Shown here: in pieces, positions 9,465 to 48,915 of the stretch | How positions within the stretch are numbered: position 1 is the stretch's first letter | How the letters are laid out: each line of letters starts with the position of its first letter | Source of the DNA: a virus | Taxonomy: Duplodnaviria; Caudoviricetes | DNA: 64,000 nt | Direction: 5' to 3' (one strand) | Virus record (IMG/VR): IMGVR_UViG_3300028172_000069 | Notes under the pieces: generated by a model | What the model was told of the DNA's origin: nothing | Seen by the model: the letters and a program-made list of their open reading frames with translations, nothing else | Databases searched by the model: none | Made by a program: the position numbers and the translations under genes

Positions 9465-10133
9465 ATGACTGACGCACGCAAAGTATCCAAAGGCCAACCA
9501 GCTCTGTCCACCGCAGACCTGAAGCACATCACCAAGGTCGATCTGAACAAGCGCCTGCAAACCGCAGAACGCCAGCTCGGCGAGAAAGCCGAAGCCCTGT
9601 CCGAGTTCCACTACGACGCTGAGCAGAGCAACGCGGCCGTCGAGCTCCTGCAAGAGCAGGGCATGAAGTACGATGGTCATCTGAGCGAGTGGTACACGCC
9701 GAAAGCCAAGGCAACTGCTACTGGCGTTCCGAAAGTGCCTGTGGAAGAAAATGAAGATTTCAGCACTCTGTTCATCCAACAGAACCAGAATCTCCAGGTG
9801 TATCGCGTCAACCTCGAATACACTCTGGACCTGAAGTCGAACTGCCCGGTGAACGCAGCCACCATGCAGACCGCGAAAGACCAGCGCCACTACGCTGAAA
9901 TCGCAGTAGTGTTGACTGACGGCGAGTTCGACACCGACCCGATCGCACCTGAAGTCCTGCCGTATGATTTGGTTGACGCCAACTCGCCGAGCAGCATTGA
10001 CCCAGCACTGGACATCTTGCTGGTCGGCCAGGCGGCAGTCGTCAAGTTCCAAGACCTGTCGTCCATCCCTGTCAAAATCCATCGTTGCGAGGTGACCAAG
10101 CAGGCCCTCGAACCGATCAAGTTCATCATCTAA
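9465..10133 (+). CDS. Hypothetical protein
   Basis: 222 aa with phage-like codon usage. Confidence 0.7.
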   Translation: MTDARKVSKGQPALSTADLKHITKVDLNKRLQTAERQLGEKAEALSEFHYDAEQSNAAVELLQEQGMKYDGHLSEWYTPKAKATATGVPKVPVEENEDFSTLFIQQNQNLQVYRVNLEYTLDLKSNCPVNAATMQTAKDQRHYAEIAVVLTDGEFDTDPIAPEVLPYDLVDANSPSSIDPALDILLVGQAAVVKFQDLSSIPVKIHRCEVTKQALEPIKFII

Positions 10134-42756: not shown

Positions 42757-43395
42757 ATGAACAAGCTCCAAAGCATGATCCAGTACCCACTCACCCACAA
42801 AGAGTTTGTGCGGGTACTGCCGAACATCTGCAACATGATGGGCCTGCGCTACCATTCGTCGAGCGACGGTCCAATGTCGAACAAGGTCTACACTCTGGAG
42901 ACAGAGGACAAGATCAAGGTAGAGTGGACGATCGACCGCACTGTACCTGCACAGCGCCAGCACCTCATCCGCATCGTCGTGATCGCTGACGAGGAGGTCT
43001 CCGAGCGCCAGAGCTTTGAAGAGGCTCTCGATCTGTTCCGCAAGGTCGTTGGCAACAAGCTCAACGAGAACCCGATGACGGCTCGCGTGGTTGATACGCT
43101 CCACCCAAGCGTCAAGATTCTGCGCATGGGCGAAACTGACGTATCGCTGTTCTCCGTACGCAACCTGCTGCTAGTCAGCGACAACGCCGCGTTCCTGCAA
43201 GAGTTTGGCCTGAAGTACGAAGGTCCAACCAACCCGCTGGAAATCAAGCGTGACCTTGAACATCACGCAGTAAGCGCCAAGCTGCGCGTCTGTGAAATGG
43301 ACGTGGTCGATCCGCTGAACGGCGTGTACATGCTGCAAATGCTGACGGCCACACTCGACAGCTTCCACATGGTAATCAAGGAGGGTGCAGAATGA
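42757..43395 (+). CDS. Hypothetical protein
   Basis: 212 aa; GAGGA RBS. Confidence 0.7.
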   Translation: MNKLQSMIQYPLTHKEFVRVLPNICNMMGLRYHSSSDGPMSNKVYTLETEDKIKVEWTIDRTVPAQRQHLIRIVVIADEEVSERQSFEEALDLFRKVVGNKLNENPMTARVVDTLHPSVKILRMGETDVSLFSVRNLLLVSDNAAFLQEFGLKYEGPTNPLEIKRDLEHHAVSAKLRVCEMDVVDPLNGVYMLQMLTATLDSFHMVIKEGAE

Positions 43396-44429
43396 GCAAG
43401 GCGCAAGAAGTACAAGGCATGCGCTCCCAACTGTGGGGTCGTGAGTTGGACAGCGAGTTTGTCATACACCAGTTGAAGGCAATCTTCGAGAAGCACGAGC
43501 TGGAGATTCACATCCGCAAGCGCCGTGAGGCGGGCTGCGCAGTCAAGCAGCATATCCTGCCGTTCGCGTATCGCTGGACTGGTACCTTCCAGCTGGGTGA
43601 TTACTACTACGAGTTTGCGATCCCGGAAAAGACCATCCATTCGCATAACGTGACGCCGCTGAGCCCCACTCAAATTCAGCGGTTCCTACGACGCAACTCG
43701 TGGTTCACGCGCAAGATCGTCAGTGAGAAAAACGACATTGACCGCCTTCACGGCGTGAAGAATCCTACACCGGACGTGTTTGATTCGTCCAGCCGTTTCT
43801 TGCGAGACGTACTGGATAAGGCAGAAGCCCACGTCAAAGCACTTGAAGTTGCCGCAGCACTACGCGCCCAGCAAGAAGCACTTACCAAGGACGCCGCTCC
43901 AACAGACCATTCGCAGTTCGGTCTGATCGGCGTTTGCGCTGGCAAGATGGTTCGCGTGCCTGTAGTCCTGGGCATGGACCGTCTGGTGTGCATCAACAAC
44001 GCGGCGTTCTTCGAGGCGTTCACGTCCGATCTGACTCCGATGGGTCTGAATGACGACGAGTTCCTAGACTTCTTGAGCGATGCCGAAGAAGAGGAAGACA
44101 GTGTCCTCAATATTCCGAAGGGCATTGAGCAAGCCTTCAAGGACTGGTTGACGCTTGACCACGATGAAGAAGAAAACATCAAGCTCACCGACGTGCAGGC
44201 AGACAAGTATGGCGATCTGGTAACCCTGACGTTTGCTGTCGCTGGTCGCGAACTCACCGTGATCACGTCGCTGCGTGAGCTCCAGAAGATTCCGGCGTTC
44301 GATCCGCTCAAAGAACTGAACGACTACCTGCCAAAGAAACCCAAGGTAGCACAAAGCGGCAAGAAAGCCAAAGCAGCGCAAGACGACGACGACGATGACG
44401 ACGATACCGACGAAGAAGATTTCCGCTAA
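43392..44429 (+). CDS. Hypothetical protein with acidic tail
   Basis: 345 aa ending QDDDDDDDTDEEDFR. Confidence 0.7.
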   Translation: MSKAQEVQGMRSQLWGRELDSEFVIHQLKAIFEKHELEIHIRKRREAGCAVKQHILPFAYRWTGTFQLGDYYYEFAIPEKTIHSHNVTPLSPTQIQRFLRRNSWFTRKIVSEKNDIDRLHGVKNPTPDVFDSSSRFLRDVLDKAEAHVKALEVAAALRAQQEALTKDAAPTDHSQFGLIGVCAGKMVRVPVVLGMDRLVCINNAAFFEAFTSDLTPMGLNDDEFLDFLSDAEEEEDSVLNIPKGIEQAFKDWLTLDHDEEENIKLTDVQADKYGDLVTLTFAVAGRELTVITSLRELQKIPAFDPLKELNDYLPKKPKVAQSGKKAKAAQDDDDDDDDTDEEDFR

Positions 44430-44547
44430 TACCGCAGCAACTGTAAAGGCACAAGTGAAAGCTCCTGTGCCAGTGCAGCAACCACAGAAGCTCTCGACTC
44501 CAGTAAACGAAGTCGACCGACTTATGTCCATGTTCAACTCCCTGTAA
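44395..44547 (+). CDS. Possible small protein (50 aa, not in ORF track)
   Basis: MTTIPTKKISANTAATVKAQV...RLMSMFNSL fills a 130-bp gap; no clear RBS. Confidence 0.4.
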   Translation: MTTIPTKKISANTAATVKAQVKAPVPVQQPQKLSTPVNEVDRLMSMFNSL

Positions 44548-44558
44548 GGAATACCATC

Positions 44559-44975
44559 ATGCCTATCCTTGTCCTGGTTGCCAGCGATGAAGCCGTCGCA
44601 AAAGCCACGAAGGAAGCTGTAGAACTCAACGTACCGCTGAACCAACTGCTGCAAGAGCGTTTCAGCGAATTCCTGCTGGGTGATCGTAAACCTGCTGCCA
44701 AGGCCAAAGCTGCCAAGGCAGGCGACGAAATCCCTGAGCCGAACGAGCACCAGCAGGTGGTCAATCGTCTGGTGACCTACGCGCAAGAAAACTACGCGGG
44801 CTGCGGTGAGTTCACCTTCACTCAACTGGTCGGCGAGTTTGATCCGGAAGAAACCATCGACAAGCAATCGCGCACCAAGTACGCCTCGATGTTCAGCAAG
44901 GCGACCGAAGGCGACGTCGGTGTTGTGAAGAAAGGCAAGAACTCCAAGCAGGTCACTGTGTACGAAGTGGCCTGA
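44559..44975 (+). CDS. RHH plus DUF1413-like putative DNA-binding protein
   Basis: SDEAVAKATKEAVELNVPLNQLL; EFTFTQLVGE..RTKYASMF..GKNSKQVTVY. Confidence 0.55.
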   Translation: MPILVLVASDEAVAKATKEAVELNVPLNQLLQERFSEFLLGDRKPAAKAKAAKAGDEIPEPNEHQQVVNRLVTYAQENYAGCGEFTFTQLVGEFDPEETIDKQSRTKYASMFSKATEGDVGVVKKGKNSKQVTVYEVA

Positions 44976-44976
44976 C

Positions 44977-45384
44977 ATGGAACTGACCAGTGATCTGGTC
45001 TCTCTCATGCACCTCCATCGGCTGTCGATGTTCCGGCGCCCGATGGAGGATAGCATCAACCACGTCAACTTCATGTTGAATGTCGGCGTGCTGCACTACG
45101 ACAGAGAGACGCAGCAACGAGTGTCGGCTGTCCAGATTCAACGCGTGTACACCGACGTCGATCAACAACGGAAGGGCCACTTCAAAGCCTTCCTCCTAGC
45201 AATCGAAGCCGAAGCTGTACGGCTCAACTATGGTGTGGTGCGAGTCGATCAGGTGCACAACGAGCACTTGCTTGCATTCCTGGAGCGATCTGGGTATGTG
45301 CGATATGACGACGAAGTTGCACCTGTAATGGTAAAGCGACTGCCGCTTATGGTGAATCACCCATGGAACCAAGACACGCAATAA
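44977..45384 (+). CDS. GNAT-fold protein
   Basis: VYTDVDQQRKGHFKAFL; NEHLLAFLERSGY. Confidence 0.6.
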   Translation: MELTSDLVSLMHLHRLSMFRRPMEDSINHVNFMLNVGVLHYDRETQQRVSAVQIQRVYTDVDQQRKGHFKAFLLAIEAEAVRLNYGVVRVDQVHNEHLLAFLERSGYVRYDDEVAPVMVKRLPLMVNHPWNQDTQ

Positions 45385-45881
45385 TTCTCACCGGCCTGTT
45401 CTGTTTGTGGACGCTGCTCATAATCTGGTTCTCACACAACCGGGCTCAGAAGCTCCGCAAAGATCAGGAAGCCTTCCAGAAGTTCATGGTTGAAAAGAGC
45501 GACGAACTTCAAGCGTCCATGAACGAACTGCGCACGCAAGGCCGTCTGGTCAACAACGTGCAACGAGCCACGAGCGGCGCGCTGTGCAGTGCAGCCCGAC
45601 TGCTGGCAGACGTGGTCATGAGCGTCAAGCACATTGCCAACTTGAGCAATGGCCACGAAAAGAAAGACCAGTTCGACAATCACATTCGGGTGATCCTCGA
45701 CGCCATCGAGAAGATCGACCTGAGTGCTGCTGAAAACCAGATGGTCAAACTCGGAGAATACCATGACGAACAAGAACGCCTCGAACAATCAGGTCGACGT
45801 AATGACACGGCTCGCAGCCGAATCAAACGGGGTGTCGACCGAGCATGTTACCTTAGCAATGAGAAACAAGGTAAAGAATGA
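45363..45881 (+). CDS. Membrane-anchored coiled-coil protein
   Basis: N-terminal TM helix; 3' end overlaps the next ORF by 119 nt. Confidence 0.6.
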   Translation: MEPRHAIILTGLFCLWTLLIIWFSHNRAQKLRKDQEAFQKFMVEKSDELQASMNELRTQGRLVNNVQRATSGALCSAARLLADVVMSVKHIANLSNGHEKKDQFDNHIRVILDAIEKIDLSAAENQMVKLGEYHDEQERLEQSGRRNDTARSRIKRGVDRACYLSNEKQGKE

Positions 45882-45945
45882 CCTGTGGCCGTTGATGTAC
45901 ACCGCAGGTCTGGGGTCAGTTCGTAAAGCGGCTGGCCTGAACTAA
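45763..45945 (+). CDS. 60-aa mini-protein resembling the family A DNA polymerase fingers/O-helix (motif B)
   Basis: GGAG RBS; ungapped match DVMTRLAAESNGVSTEHVTLAMRNKVKNDLWPLMY vs Pol I [35 protein letters not shown] (recalled). Confidence 0.6.
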   Translation: MTNKNASNNQVDVMTRLAAESNGVSTEHVTLAMRNKVKNDLWPLMYTAGLGSVRKAAGLN

Positions 45946-45949
45946 ACGC

Positions 45950-45987
45950 AAGGCAGTGACGCCCAATGGGATAGCTGCCTTTTATTT
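45950..45987 (+). terminator. Intrinsic terminator
   Basis: AAGGCAG...CTGCCTT followed by TTATTT. Confidence 0.65.
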
Positions 45988-46002
45988 GGCCTGTTTATGC
46001 AC

Positions 46003-46016
46003 TACTGATTTCAGTA
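46003..46016. promoter_or_regulatory. Operator palindrome copy abutting an RBS
   Basis: TACTGATTTCAGTA directly before AAGGAG; preceded by TGCAC as in cassette B; no -10 box. Confidence 0.7.
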
Positions 46017-46027
46017 AAGGAGCAGTC

Positions 46028-46411
46028 ATGCTGCGATTCACTGCACAACATAACCAAGAGGTTGTAGCGACGCATAGCCTGAGCAACCCGAGCCGTTGGG
46101 AGTCTGTGCTGAACAACACCTTCATCCAGCCATATGCTGGTGAAGTCATTAAGCTGGAACGCTGGCAGTTCCTCCAGATCATCGTCAACATTAGCGCTGA
46201 GTCCCAGAAGCTGCTGGGTATGATCGGACACAAGATGGGCAACATTCACACGCTGGTGCACGCCAAACGGCACCCGGCCTACGTCAACATTCGCGTCGGT
46301 GAGATTGACGACCCGATGGTTGATCTGATGGAGCTCAACGCCGTGCTGGGTCTGCTGTACTCTGCGGCTAAGGGCAGCGACGTGGTCACGCTAACCAACG
46401 CGACTACCTAA
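46028..46411 (+). CDS. Hypothetical protein
   Basis: Start moved to ATG 46028 (AAGGAG RBS). Confidence 0.7.
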   Translation: MLRFTAQHNQEVVATHSLSNPSRWESVLNNTFIQPYAGEVIKLERWQFLQIIVNISAESQKLLGMIGHKMGNIHTLVHAKRHPAYVNIRVGEIDDPMVDLMELNAVLGLLYSAAKGSDVVTLTNATT

Positions 46412-46521
46412 CCTATAATCTTCACCACTAAGTCCTTGTACTACTGATTTCAGTTATGCTATAATGGTCGAGTGAAGCATACTATGCTCGCACTTCATTG
46501 GTTATGGACTTAGTTAAGGTA
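46405..46521 (+). promoter_or_regulatory. Promoter cassette C
   Basis: -35 TTGTAC 46436-41, 18 bp, -10 TATAAT 46460-65; operator TACTGATTTCAGTT 46442-55; boxes 46405-27 and 46499-521. Confidence 0.85.
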
Positions 46522-46528
46522 AACGAAC

Positions 46529-47068
46529 ATGACAACAAAACTACGCGGCGCACCAAAGCACGTCACCGAGGCAGCGAATCAAGGCCTCAAGGTGAAAGCC
46601 AAACGCAAACTATTCGGCTTGTCGTCTGCTGACGTCGGTCGCATGATTGGCTTCGACGGTGTTCGCCTGAGTCGCGCCGAGTCTGGCTTGCGAGTAGTTG
46701 GCGCCTACGGCATTCTCAACCGTGCCCTGCACTTCCTCAAGGTGCTGGAGCAGAAGCACGGTGTTCGTCCACTCAAGGCAGTGAAGAAGACGCAACTCAC
46801 TGTGGTCGCCAAGGCCATGGTCGAGCGTGTGTTTATCTCAGGTGCCGACGTGGTCACAGTGCCTGTCGAGGACGTCGAGGTGATCGTTACTCGGGAGACG
46901 GGCGCCGAAGTGTTTGTGGTGAATGAGCTGGCGATGCTGCTGGCTGCATACTGCGCACGCACCAAGACGACTCAAGGCGAAATGTACAACGTCGCCCTCA
47001 ACAATGGGATCGTGACATTCATGCGGTCCGCAAACTTTGCACCAATCGCATGGGAGGTTCTGCCATGA
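46529..47068 (+). CDS. XRE/Cro-like HTH DNA-binding protein
   Basis: KRKLFGLSSADVGRMIGFDGVRLSRAESG; CGAAC-ATG. Confidence 0.6.
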   Translation: MTTKLRGAPKHVTEAANQGLKVKAKRKLFGLSSADVGRMIGFDGVRLSRAESGLRVVGAYGILNRALHFLKVLEQKHGVRPLKAVKKTQLTVVAKAMVERVFISGADVVTVPVEDVEVIVTRETGAEVFVVNELAMLLAAYCARTKTTQGEMYNVALNNGIVTFMRSANFAPIAWEVLP

Positions 47069-47565
47069 GCCGCATTGCATTCCACATCTTCTACGCCGAA
47101 CAGCGCGCCAAGTCTGGCCTGAACCGTGCAGAGTTTGCAGCCAAGATCGGCATTAGCCACGAGACTGGCAGCAAGTACGAGAACGGCGAGTGGTACCCGA
47201 GCTTCGCCACGCTGCGCAAACTCGAACGCACCATGGACCAGAATCTGGAGCTGTTCTACATGCCGCCTGCGTATCGTCTGGAGCTCGACATTCTGACCGA
47301 CGCGCCCAAGGCATTGCCCGAAGAGTTGCTGCGCATCATTCGCAAGCGTCGTGCGTGCACCTTCAAGTACGTCGGTGACATTGGCCGCACGGGCGCGTGC
47401 ACCTTTCAGTTTCAGTCGAAGACGCGAGCGCACCTCGAGGAGATTATCGACACCTACTCGGCGAACGACCCAAGCGAAGCCGTGTACCTGAAGAACACCA
47501 TCAAGATGGTCGACTTCAATCCCGATGATGAATTCGGTGGCGTCAAGAACAACACCGTCGAGTAA
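47065..47565 (+). CDS. XRE family HTH transcriptional regulator
   Basis: RAKSGLNRAEFAAKIGISHETGSKYENGEWYPSFATLRKL; GGGAGG RBS. Confidence 0.85.
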   Translation: MSRIAFHIFYAEQRAKSGLNRAEFAAKIGISHETGSKYENGEWYPSFATLRKLERTMDQNLELFYMPPAYRLELDILTDAPKALPEELLRIIRKRRACTFKYVGDIGRTGACTFQFQSKTRAHLEEIIDTYSANDPSEAVYLKNTIKMVDFNPDDEFGGVKNNTVE

Positions 47566-47631
47566 GAGATAAGTTTGCCTGTGCGTTCTGCGGAGCGCAC
47601 AGTTGAGCTGGACTCACTCAAGGAGCAACAC

Positions 47632-48915
47632 ATGGACAAGACTAGCCTCCCGAAAGGCATCACGCTCGAAGGCTTCACGCCAGAGGGCAACCTGATTCTC
47701 ACCAACGCGATGACTGCGTGGCCTGACGTTGTTAGCCACGGTGATGGTAAGTTCAAAGCGCTGGCCGAAGATGCGAACGACACCACGCGCATCTACGTGC
47801 GGATGCGTGATCTGCCCTCGATGCCAAGTGAGCGCAAGGCAGAACGTCGAGCCCTCAAAGGCGGCCTCCCAAAGGGAACGTACACCATGGGTACCGACAG
47901 TGTCGGCAACCTTGTACTCGGTATGCAGGCGGGTGAAGATGTAGACTGGCCAGAGTCGTTTGAACTCGAAGGCGTGAAGTACGTCGGCATACCGTGCTCG
48001 CCCAACACCATGCGTGTGTACGCCATTGCCGAGAACATCGCAAAAGTGGAGCCGGAAGCGCACAGCTACGACTTCCACAAGAATCACCACACCAGCCCGA
48101 CGGCGCGACTCATTGCACTGTCGCCGCGTGAGCGCATCCTCGCCCTGACCAAAGCGCCTGGGTATGACGTGCGCAACATCAAGGTGACGATCAGCGCCAA
48201 CGGCATTGATATGAGCCCAGACGATCTGGACGACTGGATCGAGACAGAGGTGCGTGGTCGTGTCGCTCGTCTGATGCGCCACAAGGGCCTACATAGCATC
48301 GAGTCGGCAGCACGTCGTCGCGTTATCGAAGGTGTTCGTGGTCACTTCGATAGTATTGAAACCAGCATCGCCGAACTGATGCAGGTGATGGACATGCACC
48401 GTGAAAGCCTCGATGGTATCGGACGCATGTTCTGGGATCACAAAGAGCAGAGCGAACTGGCAAGCATCGGCTGCTTTAGCGTCGTGATGCCCAAGGCCCT
48501 CGAATCCTACATGGAAGAGCCGTCGCAGCAATGGCGCCACAATGCCATGTTGTTCTTCATCGACCTGGTGCGCAACACCTACCAGAACGTGGACGAGTAC
48601 GGCCGTGAGAAGTTTGAACGCCTAGCGTCGAACATCCGTGCGCAACTTGAAGCCAACGAGTGTGAACTGTTCGACTCGTGGTACGGTGTCGCCAAGCAAG
48701 GTCACCAGATCAACGTAGCTGAGCTGGTCGAGTTGTTGGAAGCGCGTTGGTTGGAAGAAGTGCGACCTGCGATAGATCAACTCGCCACAGAGCCTGATCC
48801 GCAAGGGCAGAAAACGCGCAAGATTCAAGCGATCACGCGCACCTGCCGCACAGCCGCAATTACCGAATACCTTGAAGGCAAAGGTATCACTTGCAAGAAG
48901 GAAGAAGCCGAATGA
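47632..48915 (+). CDS. Hypothetical protein
   Basis: Start moved to ATG 47632 (AAGGAG RBS). Confidence 0.7.
   Translation: MDKTSLPKGITLEGFTPEGNLILTNAMTAWPDVVSHGDGKFKALAEDANDTTRIYVRMRDLPSMPSERKAERRALKGGLPKGTYTMGTDSVGNLVLGMQAGEDVDWPESFELEGVKYVGIPCSPNTMRVYAIAENIAKVEPEAHSYDFHKNHHTSPTARLIALSPRERILALTKAPGYDVRNIKVTISANGIDMSPDDLDDWIETEVRGRVARLMRHKGLHSIESAARRRVIEGVRGHFDSIETSIAELMQVMDMHRESLDGIGRMFWDHKEQSELASIGCFSVVMPKALESYMEEPSQQWRHNAMLFFIDLVRNTYQNVDEYGREKFERLASNIRAQLEANECELFDSWYGVAKQGHQINVAELVELLEARWLEEVRPAIDQLATEPDPQGQKTRKIQAITRTCRTAAITEYLEGKGITCKKEEAE

Follow-up and report, generated by a model that had tools for sequence, protein, structure and literature searches.

We report that a jumbo phage related to Pseudomonas phage PaBG carries a short open reading frame (ORF) which, judging by the substitutions among its orthologues, is a genuine, selected protein-coding gene, with purifying selection seen in both frames of the region that it shares with the tail of the preceding gene. 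The encoded protein is likely homologous to the helical hairpin in the fingers of family A DNA polymerases. As an overall interpretation, we consider it probable that a fragment of the polymerase fingers was captured and has been kept as a small, selected helical binding protein, which forms with its upstream neighbour an accessory pair in a subclade of the PaBG-like phages.

Results

Genomic context of the overlapping pair

The analysed window is a stretch of 64,000 nucleotides, corresponding to bases 5297-69296 of a 137.7-kb IMG/VR virus record (CheckV completeness about 52%). All long ORFs of the window are on the plus strand, and the G+C content is approximately 56%. Among isolates, PaBG (Baikalvirus), a jumbo phage of Pseudomonas, is the nearest, its baseplate hub being 70% identical at the amino-acid level. 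Complete contigs of about 265 kb of the same phage were found in many metagenomes; the upstream protein of the pair is indexed in 136 blocks of the metagenome collection, 57 of which have contigs longer than 200 kb.

The upstream gene and the 60-codon mini-gene (Table 1) close a run of small genes. The neighbour upstream of the pair matches PaBG gp010, the next gene in common with PaBG beyond the pair is a homologue of gp005, and the whole stretch between the two homologues is replaced in comparison with PaBG. We had considered a clean two-gene insertion relative to PaBG; this description was dropped, since the gene downstream of the pair has no match to PaBG gp009 and the cassette lies within the wholly replaced variable segment. 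The upstream gene is absent from a complete relative of 277.6 kb.

Several other genes of the vicinity have features of their own. The gp010 homologue shows faint matches to a GNAT acetyltransferase (E = 0.13) and to JetA DUF5716 (E = 0.004). A 345-aa orphan protein (43392-44429), for which no homologue was found in the phage collection, has a strongly acidic C-terminal tail (eight consecutive Asp, then TDEEDF). Downstream of the pair, a 171-aa protein (47050-47565) has an HTH_3/Xre-type head with PADLOC RmrA-like HTH matches (E = 4e-7); its gene overlaps the end of a 179-aa orphan gene (46529-47068) by 19 nt, and its equivalent in the relatives carries Pfam HTH_3.

Table 1. Features of the locus, with positions in the window
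Feature	Position	Strand	Remarks
Gene of a 135-aa protein, PaBG gp010 homologue (E = 2e-11)	44977-45384		3' end (22 nt) shared with the beginning of the 172-aa gene
Upstream partner gene, 172 aa	45363-45881	+	N-terminal hydrophobic helix, long helices, low-confidence tail
A-rich tract AAAAGAAA	45658-45665	+	A10 (+2 nt) in L004 (about 9894-9905)
Shine-Dalgarno sequence GGAG	45753-45756	+	6 nt upstream of the mini-gene ATG; kept in L005 and L006
Mini-gene, 60 aa + TAA (P0001)	45763-45945	+	ATG at 45763, TAA at 45943-45945; ORF and its conceptual translation, intact orthologues, dN/dS, third-position changes, codon usage
Dual-coding overlap, 119 nt	45763-45881	+	Upstream gene tail and N-terminal two thirds of the mini-gene
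Polymerase-A-like segment, residues 12-58	45796-45936	+	Helices N, O and start of O1 of the fingers; R34, K38, W42, Y46
Terminator-like hairpin AAGGCAG ... CTGCCTT (45950-45981), then TTTTATTT T-run	45950-45987	+	Begins 5 nt past the mini-gene stop
Dyad ACTACTG-N4-CAGT	46001-46015	+	Just before the Shine-Dalgarno sequence of the gene that starts at 46028; unchanged in L005 and L006

Distribution of the mini-gene

The original prediction had described a 60-aa ORF with its own GGAG and a 119-nt out-of-frame overlap, and the sequence and the ORF coordinates confirm all of this; the mini-ORF reads in the +1 frame of the upstream ORF. For comparison we used contig L004, reached via its mini-protein, and contigs L005, L006, L021, L022 and L023, reached via homologues of the upstream protein; loci L056 and L053 (unpublished genomes G007 and G024) were excluded from all analyses. 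The mini-ORF of L005 has 60 aa and is 97% identical to P0001, those of L021 and L022 carry S52Q, and that of L006, whose ATG is shifted by one codon downstream, has 56 aa and 57% identity. In each of the four recovered lineages, down to this 57% identity, the frame is intact and ends at the same stop. Gene callers report the mini-ORF in L004 only, omitting it in five of the six contigs.

The family is known from only three or four closely related phage lineages. The sole result of a word-indexed protein search was P0002, a near-identical mini-protein with R34K encoded on L004. Among 50,697 phage records, neither the locus nor the mini-protein found a match by DNA or tblastn search, and no more relatives were retrieved by back-translated patterns (IMG/VR, GTDB genomes) or by the KNDLWPLMY motif (IMG/VR). 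Longer or fused forms, sought in a word-indexed search with the family profile, did not appear at E-values up to 10, and a feature search of the ESM Atlas gave no usable match. When 1.84 billion representatives were searched by phmmer, the only match beyond P0002 was P0003, a leucine-rich-repeat protein of 1306 aa; it was rejected as spurious, its E-value being inflated by six weak repeat matches.

Selection in two overlapping frames

Between the window and L005, 12 changes are synonymous and 3 non-synonymous when read in the mini frame (dN/dS = 0.06), and the same changes read in the upstream frame are 2 synonymous and 11 non-synonymous ones (binomial P = 5e-6). In this comparison the neighbouring gene is nearly saturated at synonymous sites (pS = 0.72; the upper value across comparisons is 0.78). 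The position of substitutions within codons follows the same boundary: up to 45762, 22 of 35 substitutions occupy third codon positions in the upstream frame, and from 45763 on, third positions of the mini frame take 3 of 3 substitutions in the overlap, all of them silent in the mini frame, and 9 of 12 in 45882-45942. A search for stand-alone homologues with dN/dS, which had been proposed together with the original prediction, yields orthologues, and these are under purifying selection.

If a region codes in both frames, its divergence should drop, and such a drop is observed in the overlap. Relative to L005, the overlap diverges by 2.5%, the DNA immediately upstream by 28.5% and that immediately downstream by 19.7%; relative to L021, the respective values are 0%, 2.8% and 8.2%.

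At a larger distance, in the comparison with L006, the two frames are constrained in different halves of the overlap. In the first half, dN/dS is 0.11 for the upstream frame and 1.09 for the mini frame, the first 19 mini codons evolving as the upstream frame dictates, whereas in the second half it is 0.43 for the mini frame and 1.06 for the upstream frame. The last 14 residues of the mini-protein are weakly constrained (dN/dS = 0.74). Invariant in the overlap are EYHDEQER and RNDTxRSRIK in the upstream frame and DVMT..AA in the mini frame.

A codon-usage model based on 71 long ORFs favours the mini frame over 45763-45942 by 12.5 bits against the upstream frame and by 87 bits against the third frame. 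The GGAG sequence requires GGA at Gly131 of the upstream protein, and this codon, although it accounts for only 10% of Gly in the long ORFs of the phage, is kept in all lineages. The terminator-like hairpin placed right behind the stop also agrees with a real gene. As the mini frame is under selection, and as the length of 172 aa is the norm for the upstream protein, with invariant residues lying inside the overlap, both frames appear to code.

One could instead regard the ORF as a relic in decay, left by a polymerase gene or a mobile-element insertion, or suppose that it is untranslated and conserved as an RNA or DNA element. Such a reading would agree with the mini-ORF being passed over by gene callers in five of the six contigs, and the adjoining intergenic DNA is likewise highly conserved, probably for regulatory reasons. 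The substitution pattern, however, already contradicts it. Substitutions have three-base periodicity in the mini frame, with the synonymous to non-synonymous ratio of 12:3, and no lineage has a frameshift or a stop despite the near-saturated synonymous sites of the neighbouring gene (pS = 0.72-0.78). Moreover, the flanks hold no collinear polymerase remnants. We consider this explanation highly improbable; the suggestion of a relic, made in the original prediction, finds no support in a frame that stays intact in every lineage and has so low a dN/dS against a relative this distant at synonymous sites.

Initiation of the mini-gene

The selected frame would be initiated separately, sharing 119 nt with the tail of an upstream membrane-anchored helical protein. 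The other way to enter it would be a +1 (or -2) ribosomal frameshift within 45724-45881, which would yield an isoform of about 190 aa, anchored in the membrane and ending in a polymerase-like hairpin. The +1 frame is indeed open from 45724, and selection on the downstream frame would be indistinguishable in the two cases; also, the L006 ATG lies one codon later, and an ATG there would be expected in approximately 75% of cases from the choice of His-Asp codons alone. Nevertheless, the sequence has no evident slippery or shifty site, the correctly spaced GGAG is kept via a rare codon, and an ATG is present in every lineage. Furthermore, the upstream frame terminates 70 nt earlier in L004, where the mini-ORF is still intact and caller-reported. 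Frameshifting thus seems very unlikely, and separate initiation is the preferred reading.

The L004 variant results from two additional nucleotides in the A-rich tract, by which the upstream protein is cut to 110 aa at a TGA equivalent to 45691-45693 and the overlap is lost. The A10 of this contig may stem from a sequencing error, from a genuine frameshift variant or from the tract being prone to slippage.

Similarity to the fingers of family A DNA polymerases

The mini-protein had been predicted to be a stand-alone segment resembling motif B, the O-helix of DNA polymerase I. This resemblance is reproduced, in the same ungapped register, by Pfam, by the PaBG polymerase, by PDB chains and by a profile of bacterial polymerases. 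Residues 6-50 of P0001 match positions 179-223 of 381 in the Pfam DNA_pol_A profile (17.6 bits, E = 0.002), and no other Pfam family is matched. DNA_pol_A is the best Pfam match for four of four family proteins (17.6 bits, 13.4 bits in the R34K variant, 18.6 and 19.2 bits; profile span 179-230) and the sole match for three of them, P0002 also having a weak RepL match (E = 0.064). The profile check suggested with the original prediction is therefore positive in that the match is reproducible in four proteins, but the match is weak, as all four scores are under the Pfam gathering cut-off of 34.3 bits.

Residues 12-58 of the mini-protein align without gaps to residues 697-743 of PaBG DNA polymerase I, with 17 of 47 residues identical (36%). 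R34, K38, W42 (at the Phe position) and Y46 have the i, i+4, i+8, i+12 spacing of the O-helix; the predicted R..K...Y spacing of dNTP-binding residues, formed by R34, K38 and Y46, is accordingly in the O-helix register. The motif B pattern R-x3-K-x3-F-x3-Y-G is followed in register, with Trp replacing Phe, Thr or Met replacing Gly, and Lys in place of R34 in P0002. The invariant core of the mini-protein, K-x-KNDLWPLMY, corresponds to the O-helix.

More broadly, the mini-protein and the fingers of family A polymerases (PF00476; E. coli Pol I/Klenow, Bst Pol I, Pol nu, PaBG gp205) have in common an ungapped register of about 47 residues, including D, AA, G, E-VT, Arg, Lys, an aromatic residue at the Phe762 position (Trp), L, Tyr766 and then G...V.K..G, with DLWP standing in place of the polymerase NFG. 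A helix-turn-helix is predicted for the mini-protein, its single-sequence AF2 model being a two-helix hairpin (helices 4-22 and 26-56, pLDDT 80.6).

The resemblance exceeds the chance level of the genome, clearly so with profiles and only marginally in pairwise alignment. In Smith-Waterman alignment against one polymerase, the mini-protein scores 60 and the next segment 52; none of 3000 shuffles reached 60, the maximum being 58. With a Pol I profile built from 27 bacterial genomes, it obtains 14.9 bits, the next of 2548 six-frame segments obtains 4.6, and none of 40000 random 60-mers exceeds 10.2 bits. When a profile of the four family proteins is compared with the PDB, family A polymerases (Pol nu, Bst Pol I, Pol theta) make up 32 of the top 35 matches, always at helices N and O, at E-values of 0.1-0.9. 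The hhalign probability is 68% against nine PaBG/Lu11-type polymerases and 78% against the bacterial set (P from 1.9e-5 to 4.8e-5). Other searches gave no polymerase signal: single-sequence searches of 1.8 and 5.8 billion proteins found no polymerase, phmmer against the PDB returned only chance cyclin matches, and Foldseek of the two-helix model against the PDB, uninformative for so simple a fold, gave generic helical matches at E above 2.

The ORF was originally picked for its polymerase likeness, and the nominal E-values overstate the significance. We thus applied a test that is independent of this choice. The most diverged copy, that of L006, gets the top DNA_pol_A score, and among pseudo-orthologues in which the 24 substitutions of L006 were placed at random positions only 2 of 2000 reach this score. 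Hence the polymerase-like positions are those that the family conserves.

The same observations bear on the possibility that the mini-gene is a real, selected overlapping gene which arose de novo, by overprinting of the upstream tail and of the 3' untranslated region, the likeness to motif B being a coincidence or convergence of an amphipathic helix hairpin. The sub-threshold Pfam scores, hhalign values of only 68-78%, the generic Foldseek matches and the choice of the ORF by its likeness are all in line with such an origin, and so is the narrow, young distribution, which is typical for overprinted genes (PMC8227390, PMC3494269). On the other hand, a gap of 10 bits separates the mini-protein from all other six-frame segments, with the random 60-mers likewise left behind; the diverged orthologue, which was not selected by the reader, scores higher and lies far above the pseudo-orthologues; and the match extends beyond the hydrophobic pattern to specific polar residues (D, E, R, K, Y). 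We regard a de novo origin as unlikely, though carrying appreciable weight. Homology to the polymerase fingers, for which the profile similarity in one consistent register provides moderate support, short of proof, remains the favoured reading. The score of P0001 is 15.1 bits against the bacterial Pol I profile and 6.3 bits against the PaBG-clade polymerase, and the higher bacterial score hints at a foreign donor.

Relation to the polymerases of PaBG-type phages

PaBG gp205 is a full Pol I with a UDG domain (PMC7412058). A Pol I ORF of about 1040 aa is shared by the PaBG/Lu11-type jumbo phages (PaBG itself, L003, NC_022096 155649-159878; loci L007-L020); its motif B is KRNSVKQVIFGLIYQQG, with QQ where most Pol I have GM. 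In nine of nine aligned polymerases of this type (PaBG and eight relatives) motif B is contiguous and invariant. The polymerase of the phage itself lies outside the record, and a metagenome scan with the PaBG polymerase retrieved other lineages only, with the scan of GTDB yielding one phage-like contig.

No other DNA_pol_A signal was found in the 137.7-kb record or in any frame of 43000-48000. The match of the mini-protein family is confined to profile positions 179-230 of 381, and the palm motifs A and C with the catalytic carboxylates are absent. The mini-protein spans about 12% of the polymerase domain and, unlike the PF00476 polymerases, is devoid of palm, thumb and exonuclease; unlike the family A fingers, it stands alone, with its own start, overlaps another gene and scores under the family cut-off. 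As only N, O and O1 are covered, motifs A and C are absent, and the PaBG-type polymerases have intact motif B, the mini-protein is, by its sequence, neither a polymerase enzyme nor a split subunit.

Specifically, it might have supplied a split DNA polymerase with its missing fingers segment from a gene of its own. Family A polymerases divided into exo and pol are known in T7-like phages (PMC10201439). Yet PaBG and the eight related jumbo phages retain the uninterrupted motif B, complete polymerase-bearing relatives lack the cassette, and the mini-protein is just 36% identical to the PaBG segment. This alternative is scarcely credible.

A split match of another kind was seen in a metagenome-assembled genome (G006, contig C427; locus L033, reached via L031), where the family A match occupies two adjacent frames, covering profile positions 3-287 and then, from 3 nt on, 287-381. 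Either a frameshift or a gene split in two could explain this arrangement, and the contig itself may have entered the bin as phage contamination.

The upstream protein and the downstream spacer

Homologues of the upstream protein have 169-172 aa and identities of 99, 81, 66 and 62-64%, the 81% one being on L005. The 172-aa form is the common one, drift being limited to the last ~15 residues. No family match was found for this protein by Pfam, PDB profile search or PADLOC. Its AF2 model is all-helical (pLDDT 60; residues 145-172 below 50), the confidence being too low for a fold search. The predicted complex of the mini-protein with the soluble part of the upstream protein scores 0.01, which counts neither for nor against binding.

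The 82-nt spacer between the mini-gene and the next gene (45946-46027; 3584-3665 in L005, 3575-3656 in L006) diverges by 0-11%, as compared with 20-39% in the flanking coding DNA. It contains the terminator-like hairpin (RNA fold of -27 kcal/mol, z = -2.15), which is almost identical in L005 and L006 and is missed by a simple terminator scan due to its long loop. Together with the hairpin and the dyad, the spacer is probably a regulatory site.

Discussion

The following scenario would account for the locus. A piece of a family A DNA polymerase gene, comprising helix N, the O-helix (motif B) and the start of O1, would have been captured by the phage and held by selection as a small two-helix protein, and the upstream gene would later have extended into the captured piece in another frame. 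The resulting pair and its terminator would then occupy a variable accessory segment in one subclade of the PaBG-like Pseudomonas jumbo phages.

The mode of action would presumably be binding, with no catalysis. A free N/O hairpin would expose the face that packs in the fingers as well as the R/K/W/Y face, and hence could either display the conserved O-helix surface or pair with a partner via the exposed core. Binding of nucleotides or pyrophosphate, one of the functions initially proposed, is unlikely, since this is a hairpin of 60 aa without the palm carboxylates and metals, and since the Arg that contacts the triphosphate is Lys in P0002.

Certain small phage proteins are regarded as mimics of a component of cellular or viral machinery that titrate a binding partner. 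In this vein, the role of the mini-protein would be modulation or mimicry of the polymerase surface, for example, titration of a host factor that recognises this surface; another candidate role is that of a partner of the upstream protein. The resemblance to anti-defence mimics, in small size, location in an accessory region, narrow distribution and fast evolution, is by analogy only, and no PADLOC or other family match was found. Polymerase-sensing defences do exist: Borvo is one, and escape mutants of AbiQ map to a family A polymerase (PMC11348598). We consider the specific decoy mechanism, in which a host factor recognising the polymerase surface is soaked up, to be unlikely. A still more general proposition would be that phages recurrently excise the motif B helix pair as a tiny mimic of the polymerase surface, acting as a decoy for immune sensors or as a modulator of polymerase partners, the PaBG-type family being a selected, dual-coded example; we view it as rather more doubtful.

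Comparison with known systems reveals both common and distinct features. Genes overlapping out of frame are familiar in viruses, such as A/B/K and D/E of phiX174 and Rz/Rz1 of lambda (reviewed in PMC8227390, PMC3494269). Similarly to overprinted viral genes, the pair described here has two constrained frames, a sharp drop of divergence in the overlap, and a partner with a poorly ordered tail. In contrast to them, the short gene appears to be the older frame, borrowed and homologous to an ancient family, with the tail of the upstream gene as the apparent newcomer, and only 119 nt are shared. In the split family A polymerases of T7-like cyanophages (PMC10201439), a piece of polymerase is likewise encoded as a phage ORF of its own; however, the cyanophage exo and pol pieces are whole complementary domains, whereas the mini-protein is far diverged and repeats a segment that the polymerase of its clade already has. 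Full-text literature searches found no published precedent for a stand-alone hairpin of family A fingers.

The mini-gene cleanly illustrates how a small dual-coding gene can stay hidden in a jumbo phage, here one with a wide presence in metagenomes; annotation pipelines miss it, with no call in five of the six contigs, despite clear purifying selection. If its polymerase origin is true, a fragment of about 50 residues of a core replication enzyme became an independent protein, and a neighbouring gene has grown over it. If, in addition, mimicry of the polymerase surface is true, the mini-protein would offer a direct handle on how hosts sense phage polymerases by such systems as Borvo and AbiQ (PMC11348598).
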